DNA of 64,000 bases from Myxococcota bacterium (lineage in GTDB: Bacteria; Myxococcota_A; UBA796; CAJQPC01): NCBI GenBank assembly GCA_036012755.1, contig DASCPX010000129.1, positions 64,001 through 128,000 of the forward strand, written 5' to 3'. The notes below the pieces were generated by a model. That model worked only from the letters and a program-made list of their open reading frames with translations, made no database searches and was not told the origin of the DNA. A program made the position numbers and the translations under genes. The first letter of the stretch is position 1, and every line of letters starts with the position of its first letter. Positions 1-50,249 of the stretch are shown one piece after another.

Positions 1-185
1 CTGGAGCGCTGGCGGCTCGCTCGTCGGCCCCTCCAGGGCGACTCCGGGCCTCGGTCACCTCGTCCTCGAGGGCGTGCCGCGAAGGGAGCCCGCATCCTGG
101 ACTACCGCAGCGTCAACCTCGATCCACTCGAAGAGCAGCTCCTCAGCGAGTGATCGCGCGGAGTGCTCTTCACAACCGGGCACGA

Positions 186-1817
186 CTACCAGGAAGGGGA
201 CACCGCCGACCGGGTACAGACCCGGTGCTCGTCATCGACCTCGTCGCACACCCAACCGTCTGGAGTTGGTCTCTTCCCCCGGTGATCGATGACGAGGTCC
301 ACTCCGAGCGCGTCGAAATAAGCCACAGCGGATGCACCAGGCCAACGGCCGGCGAGCTCGTTGACACTGTCCAGCTCCCTGGAAGGCCGGGCGAAGCGCC
401 CACCCACCACAGGGCGCTGGTGTGTGGCCACGGCGGTCACGCGCGCGCCGTCGTAGCAGGAGCAGCGTCTGCCCACGAGGTCGACGATTGGTCCATCGCC
501 GCGCAGAACGTGCTCATAGACAGTCGGGACCTCGAAGGTGTCCGCCGGGACGATCTCGGGGCGTGCCTTCTCCATCAGCACCACCGGGACGATCAGCACG
601 GCAGCCAGTCTGCCCGGTCGGCCGAGGTCCCAGATGCGCTTCCACCCCGCGGCACCGAACAGACCAAGACACATCTGGCTGATCACCAGCCATCGCGCTG
701 GCGCTCGCATCCGACCGGCGAGCGGCTCCACCAGGAGCGCTGGCCCGGAACCCAGCGAGACTCCGCCGATTCGTATCTCCGGGCCCAACGCGAGGAGCCA
801 GGTCGCACAGAGGGTCCCCAGCACCGCCAGCCACACCCATCGCAGGTCCGAGCGCTTCCGGAGGACCACCACGCCCCCGAGCATCGCCAGAGCGAAGGCT
901 GCGTAGCCGTCGGTCTGGGGCTCGAGGGTGCCCGCTGGCCAATCAGCACCGAGCAACCCATGAAGCCACAGCCGGCCATCGGGGAGGATGAGCCTCAGCG
1001 GATCGAGGCTCGTGTGCACCCGCTCGCTCATGGAGATCTCGGCATCCCATGAGGCCGCGGCTCGCGCGTAGACGGTCGCTACCGGCAGCGCTGTCATCAG
1101 GCCAGCCGCCCACCCGGCGAACCCGGCACAGATCGTCTTCCAGCTCGAAGCACGGAATGCTGCGGCGGTCAGCAACAGGACGATGATCGGGACGCCGAGG
1201 TGGGCGCCGACGTAGAAGCCTCCATGCACCGCCAGCCCCACGCACCCGCCACCTACCGCAGCCATCCAGACCCGCCGGCGGTGTAGTCCGAGCCCGAGGA
1301 GGAGGAGCCCGAGGAGTCCAGGCCAGTGCGTGACGAGGTTGGCGTGGCCGAGGTGAGCCACCGAGACGGAGCCGAACCCGACGAAGAGCCCGACGACAGC
1401 GCCCTCCGGGCCGAAGTCCAGGAGCGCCGTGGCCATTCGATAGAGGATCCAGGCGCTGAGCCCGAGGCCGACGACCGACAGCATCGTGTAGCCGGAGATC
1501 GCATCGATCCCCATGGCTCTCAGTGGGACCGAGAGCAGGCCCTGAAGGCCGAACCAGTCCGTCAGCGCCAACCGGTCTGGAACGGGCCATCCCAGAGGTG
1601 AGCTCAGCAGCTGGACGTCCCCGACCAGGCTCCGCCGAACGTGCTCCACTGCGACGGCGCTGAACAGGGCGTCTCGGTGGCCCGCGAGTGACCGCCCGAA
1701 CGGGAACGCGGGCGCGAGGACCGCGGCTCCGATCAATGTGATCGTGATCGCTGCGATCGCTTCGCGGAGCAGCCTCTTCGCCTTGCTGCCCTCCGTCTGC
1801 ATTTGCGAAGTGCCCAT
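186..1817 (-). CDS. Polytopic membrane protein, probable GT-C-like (YfhO-like) glycosyltransferase
   Basis: Many hydrophobic TM segments, an 'MRAPARW' motif and a soluble C-terminal domain. The start is uncertain (ATG at 1817 or 1802). Confidence 0.55.
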   Translation of the reverse strand: MGTSQMQTEGSKAKRLLREAIAAITITLIGAAVLAPAFPFGRSLAGHRDALFSAVAVEHVRRSLVGDVQLLSSPLGWPVPDRLALTDWFGLQGLLSVPLRAMGIDAISGYTMLSVVGLGLSAWILYRMATALLDFGPEGAVVGLFVGFGSVSVAHLGHANLVTHWPGLLGLLLLGLGLHRRRVWMAAVGGGCVGLAVHGGFYVGAHLGVPIIVLLLTAAAFRASSWKTICAGFAGWAAGLMTALPVATVYARAAASWDAEISMSERVHTSLDPLRLILPDGRLWLHGLLGADWPAGTLEPQTDGYAAFALAMLGGVVVLRKRSDLRWVWLAVLGTLCATWLLALGPEIRIGGVSLGSGPALLVEPLAGRMRAPARWLVISQMCLGLFGAAGWKRIWDLGRPGRLAAVLIVPVVLMEKARPEIVPADTFEVPTVYEHVLRGDGPIVDLVGRRCSCYDGARVTAVATHQRPVVGGRFARPSRELDSVNELAGRWPGASAVAYFDALGVDLVIDHRGKRPTPDGWVCDEVDDEHRVCTRSAVSPSW

Positions 1818-1920
1818 CGTCGTCAGGGCCCATGGGGGTGGCTGGGCAAGGTACTCGGTTCCGGCCTGGTACGAGGTGATTGCGCTCCGGCTCGAATCGG
1901 CGAGCGCGATATCCACGCAC

Positions 1921-3485
<1,565 letters not shown>

Positions 3486-3489
<4 letters not shown>

Positions 3490-4496
3490 TCGACCTCCGC
3501 AGCGACACAGTCACCCGCCCTACGACCGAGATGCTCGAGGCGATGATGACCGCCGAGGTGGGCGACGACGTCTTTGGCGACGACCCCTCTTGCAACCGCA
3601 TCGAGGCCCTCGCCGCCGAGCTCTCCGGCAAGGAAGCGGCGCTGTTCTTGCCGACCGGGACGATGGCCAACCAGATCGCCATCCGCCTCTGGACCCAGCC
3701 CGGTGACGAGGTGCTCATGGAGGCCGGCGCCCACCCCTTCAACTACGAAGCCGCCGGCGCCGCCGTCATCAGCGGCGTTCAGATCCGCACCCTGACCGCG
3801 CCTGGTCGGGGACAGCTCGACCCGGCACAGGTCTGGGCCGCCTTGCGGGTGGACGATCCCCACTTCGCGCCGGCGACGCTGCTGTGCGTGGAGAACACCG
3901 CCAACCGCGGCGGCGGCTCCGTCTACCCCCAGGACGTGCTCGATGCGCTGGTCGGCGGCGCCAACGACCGCGGCCTTCGTGTCCACCTCGACGGCGCCCG
4001 GATCTTCAACGCTGTGGTGGCCAGCGGCCTCCCCCTGGCGCGGGTCTGCAGGGGCTACGACTCCATCAGCTTCTGCCTCTCCAAGGGACTGGGAGCGCCC
4101 GTCGGCTCGCTGCTGTGCGGACCCGCCGATGAGATCCATCGGGGCCGGCGCTTCCGCAAGTTCCTGGGCGGGGGCATGCGCCAGGCGGGCTTCCTGGCCG
4201 CGGCGGGCATCTACGCCCTGCAGAACCACACCGAGCGGCTCGCCGAGGACCACGCTCGGGCGCGCGAGCTGTGGTCAGGCCTGCGAGACCTCGGCTTCAC
4301 CAGCGAGGAGCCCGAGACGAACATGGTCTACGTCACGGATCTCGAGGACGCGGTCTCCGGCGCGGCGCGGCTCGCCGAAGCGGGGGTCCGTGTCGTCTGG
4401 GTCAGCAGGAGCTCGATCCGCCTCGTGACCCACCTCGACGTGGACGACGAAGACATCGGACAGACACTGCGCGCGTTCTCGGAGTTGCGGCAATAG
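3486..4496 (+). CDS. ltaE: Low-specificity L-threonine aldolase
   Basis: MIDLRSDTVT, VGDDVFGDDP, PTGTMANQ, HLDGARIFNA, CLSKGLGAPVGS (PLP Lys), GGGMRQAG. ATGA overlap with gpmI. Confidence 0.95.
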
Positions 4497-4559
4497 CCTT
4501 CGCCGCGTTCCGGTCTGCGTCGCTGCTTTCTCGGTAGACTGCGCCCCCGGAGGCCCGAG

Positions 4560-5174
4560 ATGTTCGCTCTGCTCATCGCCTGCGCCGCCAATCCGCCTGG
4601 AGTCGACCTGGTCGACCCCAGCGGTGGCAAGCCCGGGGACAGGGTCCGCGTCGTCGGGAACGACTTCCAACAAGGCGCCAGCGCCACCCTTGGAGGCGAG
4701 GCCGCCGAGCTCTCCTACAAGGGCGTCATCAGCCTCGAGCTCACCGTCCCGGAGCTGACCCCGGGGGAGCACGAGCTCGTCGTGACCAACCCGGACGGAC
4801 AGACCGCCACGGTACCGCGCGCCTTCGCCGTCGCCCCGCCGCCAGAGGCTCTCTCCATCTGCTCGGGGGCCTACACGGCGTACTCCCAGCTCGCGGCCAG
4901 CCGGAAGATCATCAAGATCGACCGACACCCGACCGGCGATGGTGAGCGGGAGACCCTCCAGATCGACTTCTCGGACATCGCCGCTGTCGAGTACGAAGCT
5001 CGCGTCCAGGGCGATGACTACTGTTCCGCGATCATCCTGCGCCTCAAGGATGGCCGCCGCGAGGTCTATGAAGACAGCAAGGACCTGGTCTTCCGAACCA
5101 AGGCCCAGGAGTTGGCGAACGTGCTCGGGACGCCGGTGGATGTCACGCACGAGGACCCGAGAGAGGTGGACTGA
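4560..5174 (+). CDS. IPT/TIG-domain putative lipoprotein
   Basis: Short signal MFALLIAC, followed by a TIG-like pattern (VDPSGGKPGDRVRVVGNDF...LVVTNPDG). Confidence 0.65.
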   Translation: MFALLIACAANPPGVDLVDPSGGKPGDRVRVVGNDFQQGASATLGGEAAELSYKGVISLELTVPELTPGEHELVVTNPDGQTATVPRAFAVAPPPEALSICSGAYTAYSQLAASRKIIKIDRHPTGDGERETLQIDFSDIAAVEYEARVQGDDYCSAIILRLKDGRREVYEDSKDLVFRTKAQELANVLGTPVDVTHEDPREVD

Positions 5175-5227
5175 GGTAGCATTCCGGTCCCTGACACCGG
5201 ACCCGTGAAGGCCGGCACGGAGGCGGC

Positions 5228-8200
5228 ATGTTCCTGCGCATCCTGGCCCTTCTGGCCGCCACGTTCGTTCTTGGTGGAGACGCCTCCGCAGCAACCACGT
5301 GCGGGGACGGTGTCCTGGACGCCGGAGACGAGTGCGACGACGGAGGCAAGGTCGACGGCGACGGCTGTGACAGTCGCTGCGACATCGAGCCCGGATGGGA
5401 CTGCGTCTTCAGCTCTTCGTTCGAAGAGGACTTCAACGAGAGCCTCGTCAGCTCCGGCACCTCGGCGTCCTGGAGCACAGCGACCGACAGCATGAGCGTC
5501 AGCCAGAGCGCGGACTCGGTGCCAGCGGTCTACCTGACCACCCTGCCCACGGAGGGGGTCACCATCACCTTCGACCTGGAGGTCACCTCCTCGAGCGACG
5601 ACGACTACATCGGCTTCGTCGTGGCCTACGACAAAGAAGAGAGCGAGGAAACGGACGCCCACTGGATGCTCTTCGACTGGAAGAAGGCCGACGGCAGCGG
5701 CAGCGGCTGTACGGCCGCCGAGGGCTTCGTGATGAGCCGGGTGACGGGCGAGGTCAGCCAGGAGGAGCTCTGGTGCCACAGCGACGAGGTGAGCGAGGTC
5801 GCGCGCGGCGACAACTACGGCTCGACCGGGTGGACCGCCGGCACCACATACGAGATCGAGCTCGTCTATACGGCGACGTCGATCACGGTCAGCATCGACG
5901 GGGTCGAGGAGATCTCCGAGACCGGCAACTTCCCCAGCGGACGCCTGGGCTTCTACGTCAACTCCCAGGACAACGCCTCCTTCGAGCTGACCAGTCCCGA
6001 CCAGAGCGGGTTCTGCGTGGACGGGCTCGACACGGACGGAGACTCGATCGAGGACCTCGTCGAGGTCCTCGACGACGAAGACACCGACCGCGACGGGCTC
6101 GACAACTTCCAGGACCCTGACGACGACGGCGACGGCATCTGGACCTCGGAGGAGTACTACGGCTCCGCCACGAGTCCGGTCGGGCAGGACTCCGACGGCG
6201 ACGGCACGGACGACTACCTCGACGATGACGATGACGACGACGGCGTCGACTCCATCGACGAAGACATCGACGGCGACGGAGATCCGCGAGACGACGACAC
6301 CGACGGCGACGGAACCAACGACTACCTCGACACGGACGACGACGACGACTCCATCCCGAGCGCGGACGAGTCGCTCGAAGGGGACACCGACGGCGACGGC
6401 ACTCCCGACCACATCGACACGGACGACGACGGCGACGGCATCCCCACGGAAGACGAGGCCTATGACGGAAACGCCGCCTTCGAGCAGGACTCGGATGTCG
6501 ACGGCACGATGGACTACCTCGACGAGGACGACGACGAAGATCTCGTCGACACGATCGACGAGGACGTCGACGGTGACGGTGACCCCACGAACGATGACAC
6601 CGACGGTGACGGCACCTACGACTACCTGGACCTCGACGACGACGACGACGGTATCAGCACGGAGGAGGAGCAGGCCCGCGGAGACACCGATGGCGACGGC
6701 AAGGGTGATCACATCGACGCGGACGACGACGGCGACGGCATCCTGACGGAGGACGAGGTCTACGACGGCACGACGGATCCGGACGACCAGGACAGCGACG
6801 GTGAAGGCACCGCCGACTACCTCGACGCGGACGACGACAACGACGGCGTGGACACGATCGACGAGGACGTCGACGGTGACGGCGATCCGACCAACGACGA
6901 CACCGACGGCGACGGCACCTACGACTACCTCGACATCGACGATGACGGTGACGGCGTCCTGACCGAGACCGAGCAGGGCGCTGGGGACACAGACGGCGAC
7001 GGCACGCCCGATCACATCGACACCGACGACGACGGTGACGGCATCCTGACAGAGGACGAGGTCTACGGCGGCACCACGGATCCCGAGGACCAGGACAGCG
7101 ACGGTGACGGCACCCCCGACTACGTCGATGCTGACGACGATGGTGACGGCGTCGACACCATCGACGAGGACATCGACGGCGACGGCGACCCGACGGACGA
7201 CGACACCGACGGCGACGCCACCTACGACTACCTCGACGACGACGACGACGGAGATGGCCTCTCCACCATCGACGAGGACACCGACGGCGACGGTGACCCT
7301 ACGAACGACGACTACGACGGTGACGGGACGGCGAACTACCTCGACACGGACTCCGATGGGGACGGCATCGACGACGATGTCGAGGTCGCGGCGGGCTACG
7401 ACCCATACGACAGCGACAGCGACGGCGACGGGGTGGACGACGGCACAGAGGTCGCAGACGGCGGAGACCCGCTGAACGATGACGACGACGGCGACGGCGT
7501 GGACACGGAGGACGAGGACGTCGACGGCGACGGCGACGCCAGCAACGACGACACCGACGGTGACGGCATCCCCGACTACGTCGACACGGACGATGACAAC
7601 GACGGCGTCGACACGATCGACGAGGTCGACGAGAGAGACTCGGACCGTGACGGGACCGACGACTACCTCGATGAGGACGACGACGGCGACGGGGTCGACA
7701 CGATCGACGAGGACGTCGACGGTGACGGCGACCCGATGAACGACGACAGCGACGTCGACGGCGACGCTGACTACCTCGATGAGGACGACGACGAGGACGA
7801 CGTCGACACGCTGGACGAGGACGTCGACGGCGACGGCGACCCGATGAACGACGACAGCGACGGCGACGGCATCGCTGACTACCTCGACACCGACGATGAC
7901 GGCGACGGCATCCCGACCGCCGAAGAGGACGACAGCAGGGACTCAGACGGCGACGGGGTGTACAACTACCTGGACGACGACGAGGACAACGACGGGGTCG
8001 CGAACATCGACGAGGACATCGACGGCGACGGCGATCCGCGCGGTGACGACAGCGACGGGGACGGAGACGACGACTACCTCGACGAGGACGACGACGAGGA
8101 CGGCATCGACACGATCGACGAGGACATCGACGGCGACGGCGACCCGATGAACGACGACACGGACGGAGACGGTACGGCGGACTACCTCGATGAGGACGAC

Positions 8201-25992: not shown

Positions 25993-26036
25993 GGGAACCT
26001 CCATCGAATGATCGAGCCTAACCGGAAGTGACGGCG

Positions 26037-26939
26037 ATGCGCCGGGGTCTGTTGCTCGGGTTCACCACCCTGGTGGTGGGCGCGACCCTCGGGTGGTGGC
26101 AGCAGGACCGCATCATCGGTGAGTTCCGCATCCTGGGACGCCGCGGCGCCCTCGCCTGGCAGGTGGACGGGCAGTGGCGGTCGGTCACATCGGAGGATCG
26201 TCGTCGCCGCAGCTGGGGTCCCCACGACGCCTTCCTTCGGGACGGACTCTCATTCGATGTGCTCGAGCCGGGCTTGGAGCTCGCGCGGCTGCGCTACCGG
26301 AGGGATCCGAACCCCGCTGACTACGAGCTCCTCGTCGTTCGGGTCGACCCGGAGCTCTGGAGCTTCCGAGTTCGTGGGGAGGAGGACTTCCGCCGTGCGT
26401 CCATCTCCGAGCTTGCGGGTGACGCCAACATCGCTCTCAACGCGAGCTTCTTCGCCGAGGAGGGCCCTGTGGGGCTGGTCCTGCAGGATGGCATCGAGCG
26501 CGTGCCCCAGGGCTCGGCGCGGGCGGCCCACTTCCTGGTGGACCCGGTCTACGGACCTCGCGTCGACAACCGGAAGGGCGCGTCCCTCGAGGGGGTGGAG
26601 CACGGCGTCCAGGGCTTCCCGGCGATCATGAGCGGTGGAGAGACCTACTCCTACATGCGCGTGGGTGGTCGGGGGTTCCCGGTCCACCAGCTCAGTCGGC
26701 GGACGGCGGTGTGCTTGGACTGGGAGGGGCAGGTCCTGCTCACCGTGACCGACACGCCGCTCAACGGCTTGACCCTCAACGAGCTCGCCACGGTGCTCGG
26801 GGGACTCGGCTGCGAGGACGCGATGGGCCTGGACGGGGGATCCAGCACCGCCCTGTATGTGCGTGCAGGCGAGCGCAGCGTGACCGTGGATGCTCGGGAC
26901 GGAATCCCGGTGGCCATCCTGGTGGAGCCTAGGATCTGA
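26037..26939 (+). CDS. Phosphodiester glycosidase (NAGPA/DUF2233) family protein
   Basis: ALNASFF, RRTAVC, AMGLDGGSSTAL. Confidence 0.8.
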   Translation: MRRGLLLGFTTLVVGATLGWWQQDRIIGEFRILGRRGALAWQVDGQWRSVTSEDRRRRSWGPHDAFLRDGLSFDVLEPGLELARLRYRRDPNPADYELLVVRVDPELWSFRVRGEEDFRRASISELAGDANIALNASFFAEEGPVGLVLQDGIERVPQGSARAAHFLVDPVYGPRVDNRKGASLEGVEHGVQGFPAIMSGGETYSYMRVGGRGFPVHQLSRRTAVCLDWEGQVLLTVTDTPLNGLTLNELATVLGGLGCEDAMGLDGGSSTALYVRAGERSVTVDARDGIPVAILVEPRI

Positions 26940-27100
26940 ATTGCCCAACTCAGAATTGTAGATCCCAACACGTATCCACAAGACATTTCGGTAACTTGGT
27001 GCCAGCCGTGCCGAACGTGTGATGGCCCTGTGGACAGGGTTGGGCAGGATTGATCCAGCGTCACTGAGGCTAAGTGCCTGAAATCCCGTTCCTCGAAAGT

Positions 27101-27117
27101 TGGCACGGGGCATGCAT
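27101..27117 (+). promoter_or_regulatory. Sigma54 (-24/-12) promoter
   Basis: TGGCACGGGGCATGCAT with GG at 27102-3 and GC at 27114-5, exactly 10 nt between. IHF-like TAAGTGCCTGAAA at 27071-83. Confidence 0.8.
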
Positions 27118-27128
27118 ATGAGAGCCAC

Positions 27129-28263
27129 GACATCCGGGCATAACAATCCGGAGTCGACCGAGGGGAACCTCGGAACGTTCTTTGACGTCGACAATGCCAA
27201 CAGAAGGGTCTTCGGACCTGGAAGATGGCGAATGAAAGCCCAAGAGAGCAACGGGCGCTCCGCCACCGGAAACGGGGGTGGGACGCAACGGACTCTTCAG
27301 TGGATAAAGCCTTGAAGTCGATCGCCTGGACGGGCGGACTGGCCAAGCGGGACCTGGCAACGGGAAGCGTGGAAGCGGGACCAACCGGACAGAGGTGACT
27401 GGAAGCTGACGGCTCATGCCTGAAGCGGATGGGAATGGGCGGTGGCGCGGAGAGCGCGGCAGTGAGCGAACCTCGAGAACGCTTGGTGGCCGCGAAGGAA
27501 ACGCCAACGTCGTGAAACGGCAAGAAGGCAAGGTCTCGCGGTGACGCGGGAGCAGCTGCTGAGGAGGAGAAAGCTCTGAAGGGTCGGGCGTCGCGGAGAC
27601 GCGTTTGCGAACGAGTGCATTCTCGGGAGTGAGCGAGGTCGAACGCGGCGAACCCCAAGACCGGCTGCAGGGTGCAATAGACCTGCGGAGCCCGGGCGGA
27701 GAAAACCGCTGAGGTGGGGAGGAACCACGAGAGCGGAACGAGCGGGGCGCTTGGCAGCGCAACGCCGAAGGGAAGTCGAGCGAGACGAGACGCGTCCGAG
27801 CGTCACGACTCACAAAGCGAGGCTGACCGGGAGAGGACGCACGGGAAGGCGCTGGTAGAGGGGTGAGACCTGGACCCAAACCCATGAGAGGAGGTCGAGC
27901 AATCGACCAGCACGGAAGCCGCGTGTCTCTGTAGGGGAATCGAAGTTCATGAAGGCAACGCCTGTGAAAGGCGAGAGGTGGAAGCGAAGACCTCGAGGGC
28001 CATCCGGTCAATCAAACGTGTGAACAACGCGGACCGGGCAAGGCCGAGGAGGAGTCGGGAAAGGCCAAACGACCCGATAGTGACCACAACGGAGAGAGGG
28101 CGCGCTGTTTCGGCAGCGAGACCCGCTCAGAGCCCTGAAGGACCCGACAACTCCATGAGAGGCCAACCGAGCGCAATGGAACCAGTTTCGGCTGGGGTAT
28201 GCGCGAGGGGAAGGCGACCGAGGCGTAAGCCTCTGTAGGGAAGTCCCTCCGGGCTCGGATGTC
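27129..28263 (+). ncRNA. Candidate large structured non-coding RNA (~1.14 kb), family unassigned
   Basis: Lies between the sigma54 promoter and a terminator. 5' GACATCCGGGC pairs with 3' GCTCGGATGTC. Many GNRA/UUCG hairpins; no convincing protein ORF. Confidence 0.75.
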
Positions 28264-28269
28264 ACCCAG

Positions 28270-28301
28270 AAGCCCCGAGAGCGAAAGCTCTCGGGGTTTT
28301 C
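28270..28301 (+). terminator. Rho-independent terminator
   Basis: GCCCCGAGAGC-GAAA-GCTCTCGGGGT followed by TTT-CTGCTTT. Confidence 0.85.
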
Positions 28302-28351
28302 TGCTTTGGATCTGGAGGCGTCTCGGCTGGAGACGCCTGTCTCGCAGAGAC

Positions 28352-29365
28352 TCAGTGCACGACGCTGGCGATCGCGGGAGCTCGAAGCATCACGCGGTCC
28401 TCGCCGGGCAGGCGGACTCGGCGGAGCAGGCCCGCCATCATCAGCCGTTCGTCGACCTCGGGCTCGATGGAGAGGGGCTCGCCGGAGAGCAGATCATCCA
28501 GGCGGCAGCTCATCCAGGTGTCGGACCGGACGATGTCGACAGCGGAGCGGATCTCCTGGGCGAGGGGCCCCATGGACTTGACGAGGCCGTCGCGGGTCCG
28601 GGGCATGCCTCCCCCGCGGGCGTCGTCGCCGAGGGCGTCGACGACGGCTGGAATGCCCCCGGAGAATCGGGCCGCGGACTCCAGGGGGGTGCGCTCCGTG
28701 ATCCCCGAACGACCGACGATGGCGGCGGCGGCTTCGGCCTCGCCATAGTCTGCGAGGGGCACGCGCGCGGCGTCCTCTAGCACCAGCGAGGGCACGTCGA
28801 CGGCAGCGGCGAGCAGCATCGTCGTCTTGCGGTTCGCCGGGTACCAGCGCACGAAGTCGGACCAGATGCGGGAGAGGTCCTCGAGGGTCTCGATGGGGAG
28901 GTACTCGGCTCCGTGCCCGAGCAAGGCGACGGCTGCGCCGCGCTCCTCGAAGCGATCCTGGGCGTTCATCAGGAGGTCCAGGGCCAGGGTGCGGAAGCCG
29001 TGCCGGCCGGCCACCATCGGCACCGGGCGATCGTTCCACTCGTCCGAGCAGAGCTGCGAGAGGATCTGCAGGACGAAGTGCCAGGCCTCGGGCGCGCGCC
29101 GGCCCTTCAGGGGACGGAAGGACACCGTGCGGCAGCCGACAGCGGGCTCTCCGACGGCGAGGTCGAGAGCCAGCTCCTCGAGGAAGGTCTGGGGCTTCGA
29201 CCAGCGCGGGGTCGTGAGGATCATCGGCTCCAGCCGGCGGAGGTGCGTGCGCACCTTGCGAGCCGTGCGGCCACGCAGCGCGGCCTCGATGAAGTGCTGA
29301 TCGGGATCGAAGGAGTCCCGCCGGGCCACCCTCAACATCTGCATCCTGCGTGCGAGCCGGCTCAT
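28352..29365 (-). CDS. Hypothetical protein, probable degenerate AAA/STAND-type NTPase fold
   Basis: Spacing of elements resembles STAND ATPases (LADYGEAEA, FSGGIPAVV), but the Walker A/B positions are degenerate. Confidence 0.5.
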   Translation of the reverse strand: MSRLARRMQMLRVARRDSFDPDQHFIEAALRGRTARKVRTHLRRLEPMILTTPRWSKPQTFLEELALDLAVGEPAVGCRTVSFRPLKGRRAPEAWHFVLQILSQLCSDEWNDRPVPMVAGRHGFRTLALDLLMNAQDRFEERGAAVALLGHGAEYLPIETLEDLSRIWSDFVRWYPANRKTTMLLAAAVDVPSLVLEDAARVPLADYGEAEAAAAIVGRSGITERTPLESAARFSGGIPAVVDALGDDARGGGMPRTRDGLVKSMGPLAQEIRSAVDIVRSDTWMSCRLDDLLSGEPLSIEPEVDERLMMAGLLRRVRLPGEDRVMLRAPAIASVVH

Positions 29366-29470: not shown

Positions 29471-31129
29471 GTGAGTCGCCCCCCGCGCCACACCCTGGTC
29501 CCCAACGCCAACAACGTGAGGCTGCTGGCGCGGCTTCTCGAGCTGGTCGCGCAAGGGGTGCGCGAGCCACGCACGCTGGCCGAGGTCCTCGACTGCGAGG
29601 TCCGCACGGTCCACTACTACACCCAGGCTGGGGACTGGCTGAACCTGCTCGAGACCGACGAGCGCACCCACCGTCCCTACCTCACCCGGCTGGGTCTGGA
29701 GTACGTCTACGCCGGCCGAAAGAGGGCGCGGGTCTACTCGCGCGCCGTGTGGGGGACGCAGTTCGTCGCCCAGCTGATGGACGGCCGCCGCACCCTCCCG
29801 GAGAACGAGGCCATCGCGGCCTTCATCCGGAAGAACGTGCCCGACATGGCTGCCTCCACGTCCAGGCGCCGAGCGAGCGCGGTCCGCAGCCTGCTGGAGC
29901 CGGCGATGCGCTACCCGGCGCCGAGCAGCTCGGGTCACCAGCTGAGCCTGGACCTCGGGCTCGCCCAGCCCCCAAGGGTCACGGAGCCGCCGCTGGACCT
30001 GTCGGTCGGCACGGAGGGCTCGCCGGATGTCTACCGACTCGTGCTGAGGGCGCTGCTCGACTTCGGAGAGCTGAGCCTGTGGCACGTCCGGGCGCTGCTG
30101 GACCGGGCCGGAGGGCAGGACTGCCCGGTCGCGCCCTATGTCGAGCTTGCCGTCGAGCGAGGTGACGCCTGGCGCGTCGGGGATCGGATCGTCGTCAGCT
30201 TCGGCGCGGCCTGGCGCCGGGACCTCGCCGACACGGTCGCGGGGGTGGCGCTGAGCGACCCCGGCTACAGGGCCTACCTCACGGTCCTTCGCCAGACCGC
30301 AGACGGGGATCCGGGCGCGGCCATGGACTATGCGCGTCTCCAGGAGCGCTACGCCGCCTGGGACCGCCGCATCTTCGGCCGCGAGGTCCGGCCTCCAGAG
30401 CTCGCAGCGGACCTCGACCGTGTCCTGCTGGGCCGGCCGATCGACGCTTTTCCGCTCGCTGGCGAGCCCGGGCCGGAGCCCTCTCCCCTCACCGGCGCCT
30501 TCCTGTCCATCTGCGAGCACGAAGGGGTCGTCATCGCCCTGCCGCCGTCCCTGGGCCAGCTGGTCGACGGGGTCTCCGGGGCCAATGCTGCGCTGGAAGC
30601 CCGCCGAACCGGCGAAGGCAGCCGCACTCCCAGCCACCTCGACAGGCGCGAGCTGGTCCACGGGGGCCTGTTCCACCCGGGCGAGGTGCGAGGGCGTGCC
30701 ATCCCCGACCGCGTCACCCTGCGGCACCGAGCGCTCTGTCACGTGCCCCACCTGGCCATGGTCGCCGCACTGTTGGTGGCGCACCGGAAGCGGCGTGGGG
30801 CCTTGCGGATCCGGGCCAGCGAGAGCCGCCTGGAGCTCAGGCTGGGCCGACGCTCCATGGGAGAGCTGCTCTACCTGTTGGACGAGTTCTGCTCGGAGCA
30901 GGGCTGGCTGGTGGCCCGTCGCCCCCGGGCGGGACTCTCCGGGGCCAGCATCGCGGCGGTGCTCGAGTCGCTGGGGGTCGCGGTGCGCTTCGATGACCTC
31001 CTCGTCCTCGACGAGGCCTTCTTCGTCCGGCTGCAGTCCGACGCGGAGGATCGGGAGATCTACGAGGGCCTCCTGCCCTTGTCCGAGCGACTCGTCGCCT
31101 TCCTCGAGGAGTGGCGCGGGGAGCCATGA
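29471..31129 (+). CDS. Hypothetical protein with N-terminal winged-helix-like region
   Basis: LAEVLDCEVRTVHYY HTH-like segment and STSRRRASAVRSLL; long ORF with typical codon bias. Confidence 0.55.
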   Translation: MSRPPRHTLVPNANNVRLLARLLELVAQGVREPRTLAEVLDCEVRTVHYYTQAGDWLNLLETDERTHRPYLTRLGLEYVYAGRKRARVYSRAVWGTQFVAQLMDGRRTLPENEAIAAFIRKNVPDMAASTSRRRASAVRSLLEPAMRYPAPSSSGHQLSLDLGLAQPPRVTEPPLDLSVGTEGSPDVYRLVLRALLDFGELSLWHVRALLDRAGGQDCPVAPYVELAVERGDAWRVGDRIVVSFGAAWRRDLADTVAGVALSDPGYRAYLTVLRQTADGDPGAAMDYARLQERYAAWDRRIFGREVRPPELAADLDRVLLGRPIDAFPLAGEPGPEPSPLTGAFLSICEHEGVVIALPPSLGQLVDGVSGANAALEARRTGEGSRTPSHLDRRELVHGGLFHPGEVRGRAIPDRVTLRHRALCHVPHLAMVAALLVAHRKRRGALRIRASESRLELRLGRRSMGELLYLLDEFCSEQGWLVARRPRAGLSGASIAAVLESLGVAVRFDDLLVLDEAFFVRLQSDAEDREIYEGLLPLSERLVAFLEEWRGEP

Positions 31130-50232: not shown

Positions 50233-50249
50233 TTGGCATGGTCCCTGCA
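50233..50249 (+). promoter_or_regulatory. Sigma54 promoter
   Basis: TTGGCATGGTCCCTGCA: GG(50235-6)-N10-GC(50247-8), about 35 nt before the small ORF. Confidence 0.6.

Follow-up and report, generated by a model that had tools for sequence, protein, structure and literature searches.

The stretch of DNA analysed here (the window) comprises 64,000 nucleotides of a Myxococcota bacterium (genome G000, 96% complete, contig C129) and almost certainly contains a genuine gene for a structured, non-coding RNA (ncRNA) that is driven by sigma54. The RNA lies at 27127..28267 on the + strand, is ~1.13-1.14 kb long, and belongs to a family with members across the phylum. As a whole, the evidence is best explained by a folded ncRNA gene of a Myxococcota-wide family that is controlled by sigma54 and an enhancer and would act in trans through its fold, a reading to which we assign a probability of about 0.6.

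A first-pass annotation, made from the letters of the window alone, had described this region as the only long gene-free stretch of the window, with a purine-rich + strand and without codon periodicity. Our survey of gaps used a crude GC3-based gene caller only. This caller leaves further gaps in the window, but the region is the sole gap with both lowered GC content (0.62) and purine excess (0.61). The + strand of the RNA is 63% purine, and inside the region the AT skew rises to 0.46 and the GC skew to 0.30, compared to ~0-0.1 in the flanks.

The minus strand of the region contains stop-free stretches of 313 and 335 aa, which could be taken to mean that the DNA codes for protein in some frame or code. 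Such open stretches are, however, expected in DNA with 63-70% GC; neither has a Pfam match, and they are not conserved. Among 24 full-length relatives the longest stop-free stretch switches frame and strand, and no frame is open throughout. Mismatches in six close pairs are spread evenly over the three codon positions, few of the indels in these pairs are divisible by three (0/3, 0/6, 3/21, 2/8, 2/11, and 8/31), and 1-nt indels occur between copies that are 91-92% identical. The relatives thus show no coding signal in any frame, as the missing codon periodicity had indicated. A leader or antisense transcript of a neighbouring gene would be another way to account for the region, yet the RNA gene has its own terminator, the next gene downstream is convergent, and the neighbours vary among loci. 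We consider it extremely improbable that the region is a coding sequence, a leader, or an antisense transcript.

A BLAST search with 1.2 kb of the region returned collinear patches in 14 of 41 related genomes, the window's own included. The conserved patches (query positions 1-93, 135-224, 414-485, 540-675, 745-795, and 1028-1176) are separated by spacers that differ widely in length, a pattern typical of structured RNA. A covariance model (R1) built from 27 sequences of the best-conserved part, the core "block D" (27636..27750), has matches in 76 of 151 sampled genomes of the order to which G000 belongs, and in 32 of the 61 high-quality ones. By family within the order, matches were found in 10/21 (f1), 0/10 (f2), 30/46 (f3), 2/2 (f4), 11/22 (f5), 8/16 (f6), and 14/33 (f7) genomes. 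Of 151 genomes sampled across the phylum, 30 have R1 matches, including members of families beyond the order (3/3 in f8, 6/10 in f27, and 3/12 in f19), and nothing was found with R1 in f17 (0/13), f24 (0/8), f29 (0/6), and f30 (0/9). Many genomes have two to six R1 matches, a number that does not equal copy number. The RNA is present as a single copy in G000 and as tandem copies in G098, G113, and G031, and full-length elements range from 952 to 1,715 nt. A few extra loci came from a loose database pattern scan for the promoter plus CTTTGACGT: among the matches listed (119 stretches), 29 have a BLAST match to the family and at least 25 are family loci. In the complete genome G070, two loci (G070:C1 6485862-6486238 and 7348362-7349121) each have two core-block-like matches ~150-530 nt apart, which suggests an internal duplication of the core in the RNA of this lineage.

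The fold is conserved along with the sequence patches. The minimum free energy of 27127-28266 is -486 kcal/mol, whereas 40 dinucleotide-shuffled versions give -446 +/- 9 kcal/mol (z = -4.4). Among the 27 core-block sequences, compensatory changes are seen in 12 of the 14 pairs predicted. A consensus for the whole RNA, obtained with RNAalifold from an E-INS-i alignment of 19 full-length elements and expressed in window coordinates, comprises 175 pairs that are closed by a helix between the 5' and 3' ends, and 113 of these pairs show compensatory pair types. We re-counted this consensus on a separately made alignment of 12 sequences (A1), with slid partners and shuffles as controls. In A1, 81.6% of cells pair, versus 35-42% with slid partners, and changes on both sides occur in 77 pairs, versus 26-38 when slid; none of 500 shuffles attains the observed value on any of five measures. 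Together with the collinear blocks, the variable spacers, and the missing coding signature, this covariation bears out the earlier call of a large ncRNA.

The closing helix had been proposed as an 11-bp pairing of GACATCCGGGC (27129..27139) with GCTCGGATGTC (28253..28263), with one G-U pair, and both + strand segments are present as claimed. Nine pairs of it (27129-37/28255-63) are formed in 99% of cells across 12 sequences, with compensatory changes in four of the nine pairs, and in six pairs when 19 sequences are counted; variants in relatives include GACAUCC, GACACCC, GGCACCG, GUCACCC, and GGCGGCG. The covariation upholds the helix, but the inner CCGG of the 11 bp has an alternative in a local CCGG-loop-CCGG hairpin, likewise in most relatives, and this hairpin is capped by UUCG, GCAA, or GGAA in several of them.

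Within the closing helix, the consensus folds into further domains, all on the + strand. The conserved 5' domain (27154..27191) consists of a helix (27154-58/27187-91) around a hairpin (27159-62/27169-72) and the invariant CUUUGACGU (27181-27189). CTTTGACGT is unchanged in 27 of 27 aligned 5' domains, and the pairing GTCGAC/GTCGAC is replaced by GTCAAC/GTTGAC and GTCGGC/GTTGAC in relatives. A second domain (27238..27584) has long-range closing helices (27238-41/27581-84 and 27245-49/27573-77) and inner helices at 27252-68/27273-90, 27293-303/27556-66, 27310-20/27518-28, and 27535-40/27545-51. Among the 19 sequences, both sides have changed in 11 of 13 pairs of helix 27252-68/27273-90 and in 8 of 11 pairs of helix 27293-303/27556-66. 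The core region follows, with helix 27589-95/27644-50 and helix 27653-65/27851-63, which closes the domain 27653-27863. Block D within it has a hairpin (27667-71/27682-86) with the conserved loop GUGCAAUAGA and further helices at 27706-10/27732-36 and 27714-17/27725-28. In the 3' domain (27880..28241), crosswise pairing of the repeated words CCAUGAGAGG and CUCUGUAGGG forms two nested helices (27880-91/28230-41 and 27926-37/28151-62) that enclose helices 27940-55/28133-47, 27991-28006/28036-52, and 28055-59/28073-77. Long invariant words (CUUUGACGU, GCAACGGACUC, and GCGAACCCCAUGA) are unpaired. We dropped an 8-nt match between UUGACGUC and the complement of a 16S rRNA word, as it was at chance level by our own estimate.

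Seven hairpins with stable tetraloops had been listed in the first-pass annotation, and all of them are present (27158-73, 27206-19, 27535-50, 27893-908, 28103-18, 28182-95, and 28220-33), but only 27158-73 and 27535-50 are part of the conserved fold. Hairpins 27206-19, 27893-908, 28103-18, and 28182-95 fall in stretches that vary among lineages, and hairpin 28220-33 competes with the conserved long-range helix 27887-91/28230-34. The strong terminator that had been placed behind the RNA was found as an intrinsic terminator on the + strand (28273..28300, CCCCGAGAGC-GAAA-GCTCTCGGGG followed by TTTT), with a 10-bp GC-rich stem and GAAA loop in the hairpin (28273-28296) and the T-run at 28297-28300. 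A similar hairpin and T-run stands behind 10 of 24 elements in a one-mismatch scan.

Searching the whole window against Rfam 15 at the gathering score gave no match, including to OLE, GOLLD, ROOL, HEARO, raiA, group I/II introns, RNase P, tmRNA, and 6S, and the same holds for 20 homologous loci (70 kb). At E <= 10, the region 26900-28400 has three terminator-like matches only (11-17 bits). G000 carries its RNase P RNA and 6S RNA at other places, and ARAGORN found no tRNA or tRNA-like part in 26500-28800. No description of this RNA was found in the literature searched, whose coverage was incomplete, with most subscription journals and bioRxiv supplements outside it; the text of PMC5737381 mentions neither myxobacteria nor sigma-54. 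The RNA therefore probably represents an undescribed class, as had been suggested from the sequence.

The RNA stretch is present in 20 public sequencing runs from seven studies, 17 of which are recorded as RNA; the RNA runs are marine, seawater, and vent metatranscriptomes. Some of them comprise only 9-20 million letters, and full-length contigs arise even in marine runs of 9-12 million letters. In four runs from four studies, one contig each is identical to the window (0 differences, 0 gaps). These contigs of 1,151, 1,131, 1,149, and 1,078 nt cover 27141-28267, 27137-28267, 27141-28266, and 27185-28262, respectively, and so span the unit end to end. They are Logan assemblies, from which neither the start and end of a transcript nor its strand or level can be established. 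In the four RNA runs, the flanks (26300-27051 and 28368-29100) are uncovered, a finding that we do not count as evidence. Four of the runs (X1, X2, X5, and X8) also contain other contigs that match only blocks 27235-56 and 27649-86. These reach 1,569 nt, have a word depth of 9-6290 that mostly exceeds that of the window's own contig, and seem to come from related RNAs that are expressed in those marine communities as well.

The ends of the contigs lie close to the predicted ends of the RNA. Contig starts at 27137-27141 are 10-14 nt past the predicted start near 27127, which is 12 nt after the -12 GC of the promoter, and in two runs Illumina adapter letters stand directly against 27141. We infer that second-strand cDNA synthesis at a true 5' end near 27127 would leave fragments ending 12-14 nt within the RNA. 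At the 3' side the RNA contigs end at 28262-28267, just after the closing helix and short of the terminator, which could reflect trimming or poor priming in the terminator hairpin; as a hint of 3' trimming this is at most weak.

Library ends that lie beside the closing helix, not at the terminator, would also fit a large ribozyme that processes itself, or one that acts on another substrate, with the conserved junctions and unpaired invariant nucleotides as its active site. In size, closed multi-domain layout, and invariant loop and junction nucleotides, the RNA is reminiscent of RNase P RNA and group I/II introns. Against catalysis, even at E <= 10 there is no match to a ribozyme or intron model of Rfam, RNase P RNA is encoded elsewhere in the genome, and there is no reverse transcriptase, maturase, or endonuclease gene nearby. 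The identical contigs follow the DNA without joints or skips and hence give no sign of splicing, and there is no indication of self-cleavage either. We regard a ribozyme as unlikely.

The sigma54 motif TGGCACGGGGCATGCAT was read at 27101-27117, where the first-pass annotation had placed it, and the promoter proper (TGGCAC-N5-ATGCA, TGGCACGGGGCATGCA, with the -24 GG and -12 GC) occupies 27101..27116 on the + strand, with these two dinucleotides in the spacing of TGGCAC-N5-TTGCW. TGGCAC-N5-NTGCA stands ahead of the conserved 5' end in 15 of the first 17 loci. A strict regular expression finds it in 35 of 56 distinct loci, and 10 of 11 further loci viewed with relaxed criteria have it too. The 10-12 nt from the promoter to the conserved GRCRYC start vary freely, as expected of untranscribed DNA. 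The genome encodes the matching sigma factor, as rpoN was identified by a PF04552 match (205 bits, G000:C23:3716-4189).

Upstream of the promoter, the relatives share two palindromes that are consistent with the enhancer-dependent control proposed earlier. In 22 of 30 elements, the site most similar to TGGGAA-N6-TTCCCA begins 58-62 nt ahead of TGGCAC, and 13 of the 30 have this proximal palindrome with at most two mismatches, compared with 0.05 on average and 2 at most in 200 shuffles. Another palindrome begins ~135-194 nt ahead of TGGCAC and has zero or one mismatch in 13 of 30 elements. In the window, the candidate proximal enhancer (upstream activating sequence) TGGGCAGGATTGATCCAG lies at the conserved position (27041..27058, +, 60 nt before TGGCAC) with four mismatches, and a possible distal enhancer, TAGGATCTGAATTGCCCA, is tentatively placed at 26930..26947 (+, 171 nt before the promoter) with three. 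Since a strict enhancer pattern returns no site in G000, its own degenerate copy included, we chose four relatives with canonical sites for the question of the regulon. All seven exact palindromes in these genomes are at RNA genes, one of which is cut short by the end of its contig, and so are all five matches of the palindrome followed by 36-46 nt and TGGCAC. A fifth relative had no exact palindrome match.

Between enhancer and promoter lies a further element, AAGTGCCTGAAAT (27072..27084, +), which a regular expression finds in 12 of 30 elements and which is a putative IHF-like bending site. Similar elements in either orientation (AAGTGCCTGAAATC or GTGATTTCAGGCACTTGG-like) precede many other sigma54-type promoters of G000 and end ~5-20 nt before the -24 box (e.g., G000:C53 5526, C149 52425, and C129 55647), and they may be the organism's IHF site or another general element of its sigma54 promoters. 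Another sigma54-like site, TGGCATGGTCCCTGCA, is found in the window at ~50234-50249 (+; G000:C129:114234). Elsewhere in G000, near C47 2267 (-) and C126 3244 (-), sigma54-type promoters are followed by ~110-150 nt that end in a hairpin and T-run. These stretches may be small sigma54-dependent RNAs, and the C47 candidate is located just upstream of groES-groEL.

Enhancer sites of this kind call for an activator, and our candidate is an NtrC-type response regulator encoded beside the tandem RNA genes of G098, which has receiver, sigma54 AAA+, and HTH_8 (Fis-type HTH) domains. Best matches to this regulator in the order are bimodal, with orthologue-like proteins at 52-79% identity and paralogue-like proteins at ~40-44%; the G000 orthologue is encoded at G000:C160:114789-116192, on a contig other than that of the RNA. 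Across all genomes (cut-off 1e-120 for genome counts), 67 have both RNA and activator, 9 only the RNA, 23 only the activator, and 52 neither. The corresponding counts are 31, 1, 11, and 18 for high-quality genomes and 34, 5, 7, and 21 for genera, where any member counts and the cut-off is 1e-144. Activator orthologues are thus present in 31 of 32 RNA-positive but only 10-11 of 29 RNA-negative high-quality genomes, an association that Fisher values overstate because kin are not independent. Activator and RNA also differ concordantly within genera g32, g43, g58, and g19. Of the nine genomes that have the RNA but no activator at the looser cut-off, eight are 77-90% complete and one (G116) is 91% complete. 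Beyond the order, E <= 1e-115 did not suffice to tell orthologues from paralogues. In G082, G110, and G118, the activator gene is oriented like the RNA gene and lies 209-256 nt ahead of the RNA's sigma54 promoter, and in G098 it is 2.5 kb away; RNA and activator gene are far apart in most genomes, G000 included. The palindromes and this co-occurring, sometimes adjacent regulator suggest control by a dedicated NtrC-type protein.

The activator of family f3 is part of a gene cluster (loci L223, L224, L203, L227, L229, and L230) in which, often, a His_Phos_1 phosphatase gene is followed by those for the NtrC-type activator, a TPR protein, and a beta-propeller-like protein. The RNA gene is located between the activator and TPR genes in G082, G110, and G098, and the core block is 2.1-2.3 kb from the propeller-like gene in G113, G140, G090, G040, G074, and G150. 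The TPR and propeller-like genes come after the RNA in nine f3 genomes and otherwise after the activator (G023, G070, and G060). The propeller-like protein is ~360 aa long, has no firm Pfam family, and is fast-evolving (25-40% identity within f3). Both proteins were found only in f3 (34/46) and are unrelated to the neighbour genes in the window, and we rejected them as general partners of the RNA, with none detected in G000.

A sigma54-dependent RNA next to its regulator has a precedent in Myxococcota, in Myxococcus and its relatives. According to PMC5568312, pxr is located downstream of the gene for the sigma54-dependent response regulator Nla19, the 262-nt intergenic region holds a sigma54 promoter, pxr paralogues each have their own sigma54 promoter, and Pxr is a 108-nt RNA with three stem-loops. 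The RNA described here is like Pxr in its phylum, its sigma54 promoter, its paralogous copies with sigma54 promoters of their own, and, in three genomes, its position directly downstream of an NtrC-type regulator gene with a few hundred nt between them. This arrangement, the tandem copies in G098, G113, and G031, and the long invariant unpaired words would suit a giant base-pairing regulator, a counterpart of Pxr that is made by sigma54 and pairs with mRNAs to gate a life-cycle decision. Yet the RNA is tenfold longer than Pxr (~1.13 kb, with closed domains), and its conservation lies mostly in long-range helices and closed domains, which is unusual for small RNAs that pair through a seed. We also searched 151 genomes of the phylum with a profile of the 5' domain (R2), which is sequence-only because RNAalifold gave no consensus pair for the 5'-domain alignment (A3). 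Beyond the order it returned only weak matches of 18-24 bits, none of the 19 checked matches has a sigma54 promoter, and we judged these matches to be noise that lends no support to a small Pxr-like homologue. The profile thus detected no homology to Pxr, whose sequence itself was not compared, and no credible small homologue emerged. No Hfq gene was found in G000 either. A base-pairing regulator of this type is, in our estimate, improbable.

Small RNAs beyond the myxobacteria follow a comparable logic. In the pairs CrcZ/CrcY-CbrB, Qrr-LuxO, and GlmY-GlrR, a response-regulator-type activator bound at upstream palindromes drives an ncRNA as its main output, and the same logic is proposed here by analogy. 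These RNAs are ~100-400 nt long and act through Hfq, Crc, or base pairing, whereas the RNA described here is far larger, lacks a repeated sponge motif, covaries in its global fold, and occurs in a genome in which no Hfq gene was found. Its regulatory logic thus has precedents, and the RNA itself matches no known class.

Another way for the RNA to act would be to soak up a global RNA-binding protein with its purine-rich GGA and A-rich stretches, as CsrB/RsmZ do with CsrA, or as CrcZ, which is driven by sigma54 and an NtrC-type activator, does with Hfq/Crc. The RNA is, like CsrB/RsmZ, abundant, non-coding, and rich in purines (63%) and GGA, with many ARN-like runs, and G000 encodes a CsrA homologue. 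However, unlike CsrB/RsmZ, the RNA does not co-occur with CsrA (CsrA versus RNA is 0/46 versus 30/46 in f3, 0/4 versus 4/4 in g4, and 4/4 versus 0/4 in g3), which disfavours a CsrA sponge, and the missing Hfq gene (no PF17209 match in G000) disfavours an Hfq sponge. A sponge RNA typically repeats one short loop motif many times and changes quickly in evolution, whereas the hairpin loops here are mostly GNRA or UNCG caps, the conserved words are unique and not repeated, and the architecture is conserved across the phylum. We consider a sponge very unlikely.

The family might also be an RNA of phages or other mobile elements, as GOLLD and ROOL often are. Several copies occur per genome, some in tandem, and an IMG/VR contig (L220, 1-2432 of 5446) begins within a family member. 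The RNA part of this contig runs to ~1540, its GC content is 0.64 in the RNA part and then 0.53, and its 232-aa open reading frame has no Pfam or PHROG match; the contig may be a chimeric assembly or mis-called as viral. It was the one viral contig matched in the scan, and the drop in GC together with the unmatched frame looks like a mis-join or mis-call. Moreover, the flanks of 21 loci consist of differing, ordinary chromosomal genes (uvrB, ligA, aconitase, 2-oxoacid dehydrogenase E1, mfd, and others), with no integrase, transposase, or phage gene among them; no tRNA lies in 26500-28800; and close kin share local synteny, which does not extend further. A mobile origin is very improbable. Two neighbours of the RNA in the window recur near it in relatives: the NAGPA-domain gene (26028-26939, +) also adjoins one RNA copy in the sister genome G002, and the DUF7226 gene (29471-31129, +) is also near the RNA in G016. 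Neither recurs at more distant loci.

In the reading that we prefer, a signal would reach the receiver domain of a dedicated NtrC-type response regulator. The activator would bind the two TGGGAA-N6-TTCCCA palindromes and, with DNA bending, drive sigma54 polymerase from 27101-16, so that synthesis of the RNA would be the main output of a two-component signalling path. The 1.13-kb transcript would terminate at the intrinsic terminator. It folds into a closed, four-part structure with paired 5' and 3' ends and accumulates, collinear and full-length, in natural marine communities, where this stable RNA would reach high levels. What the data show is a conserved and folded RNA gene with a sigma54-type promoter and an enhancer motif, whose product is present in RNA libraries; which protein activates it, where the RNA ends, and how it acts are proposals. 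Its effect would be exerted in trans and depend on the three-dimensional fold, with the RNA as a ribonucleoprotein (RNP) scaffold or as an RNA-only assembly in the manner of OLE, ROOL, and GOLLD, rather than by coding, by control of its neighbours in cis, or by soaking up CsrA or Hfq. For the scaffold or architectural mode of action by itself we would put the chances a little below even.

Several observations weigh against this reading. The window's own enhancer sites are degenerate. The activator was assigned from its co-occurrence with the RNA in genomes that are kin and from its position near the RNA in four genomes of a single family. In 19-23 genomes the activator is present and no RNA was detected, and in 9-10 the RNA is present and no activator was detected. 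A copy of the RNA was not detectable in half of the genomes sampled from the order, which can thus do without it. The family as a whole shares no partner protein, and tblastn with the TPR and propeller-like proteins found no homologue in G000. The consensus fold was derived from alignments that include the counted sequences, which biases the counts somewhat favourably, though the margin is large. The assembled contigs have the limits given above, and as their 5' boundary (27137/27141) falls within or directly behind the first strand of the closing helix, this helix could be missing from the mature RNA. Finally, given the incomplete literature coverage, a prior description may exist.

The closest counterparts of such an RNA are the large structured RNAs OLE, GOLLD, and ROOL. 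OLE is ~600 nt long and part of an RNP (PMC9723947), and OLE, GOLLD, and ROOL form homo-oligomeric complexes (PMC12286853). The RNA described here is like them in its large and intricate fold, its conserved long-range helices, and its tetraloop-capped arms. It differs in having no similarity to any Rfam 15 model, in its greater length (0.95-1.7 kb), in its occurrence in Myxococcota among chromosomal housekeeping genes, and in its sigma54 promoter with dedicated candidate enhancer sites. OLE, GOLLD, and ROOL belong to Bacillota or phage-linked settings, and we know of no report of a sigma54 promoter with a dedicated enhancer for any of them.

To our knowledge, few large structured bacterial RNAs exist beyond rRNA, RNase P, tmRNA, SRP, OLE, GOLLD, ROOL, and raiA, each of which opened work on RNA architecture or RNP biology, and GOLLD is the largest non-ribosomal structured class that we are aware of. 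The family described here would be the largest non-ribosomal structured RNA family in bacteria known to us, and its conservation extends through a phylum whose members are noted for social behaviour, predation, and large genomes. As full-length contigs arise in very small marine runs, a sizeable share of the "unknown" RNA in environmental samples may belong to it. The sigma54 promoter, the palindromes that are exclusive to RNA genes in four genomes, and the candidate activator offer an experimental handle that is rare for orphan RNAs. A bolder possibility, which we hold to be rather unlikely, is that a dedicated two-component/sigma54 pathway has a giant RNA of 0.95-1.7 kb as its sole output and that this RNA is itself the effector, either a ribozyme or an RNA or RNP machine that assembles by itself. 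It would then be an ancestral or parallel counterpart of the Pxr "gatekeeper", by which the life cycle of myxobacteria is controlled. Apart from this extension, the parallel with Pxr/Nla19 suggests a route to understanding how myxobacteria may gate life-cycle decisions by activator-driven RNAs.

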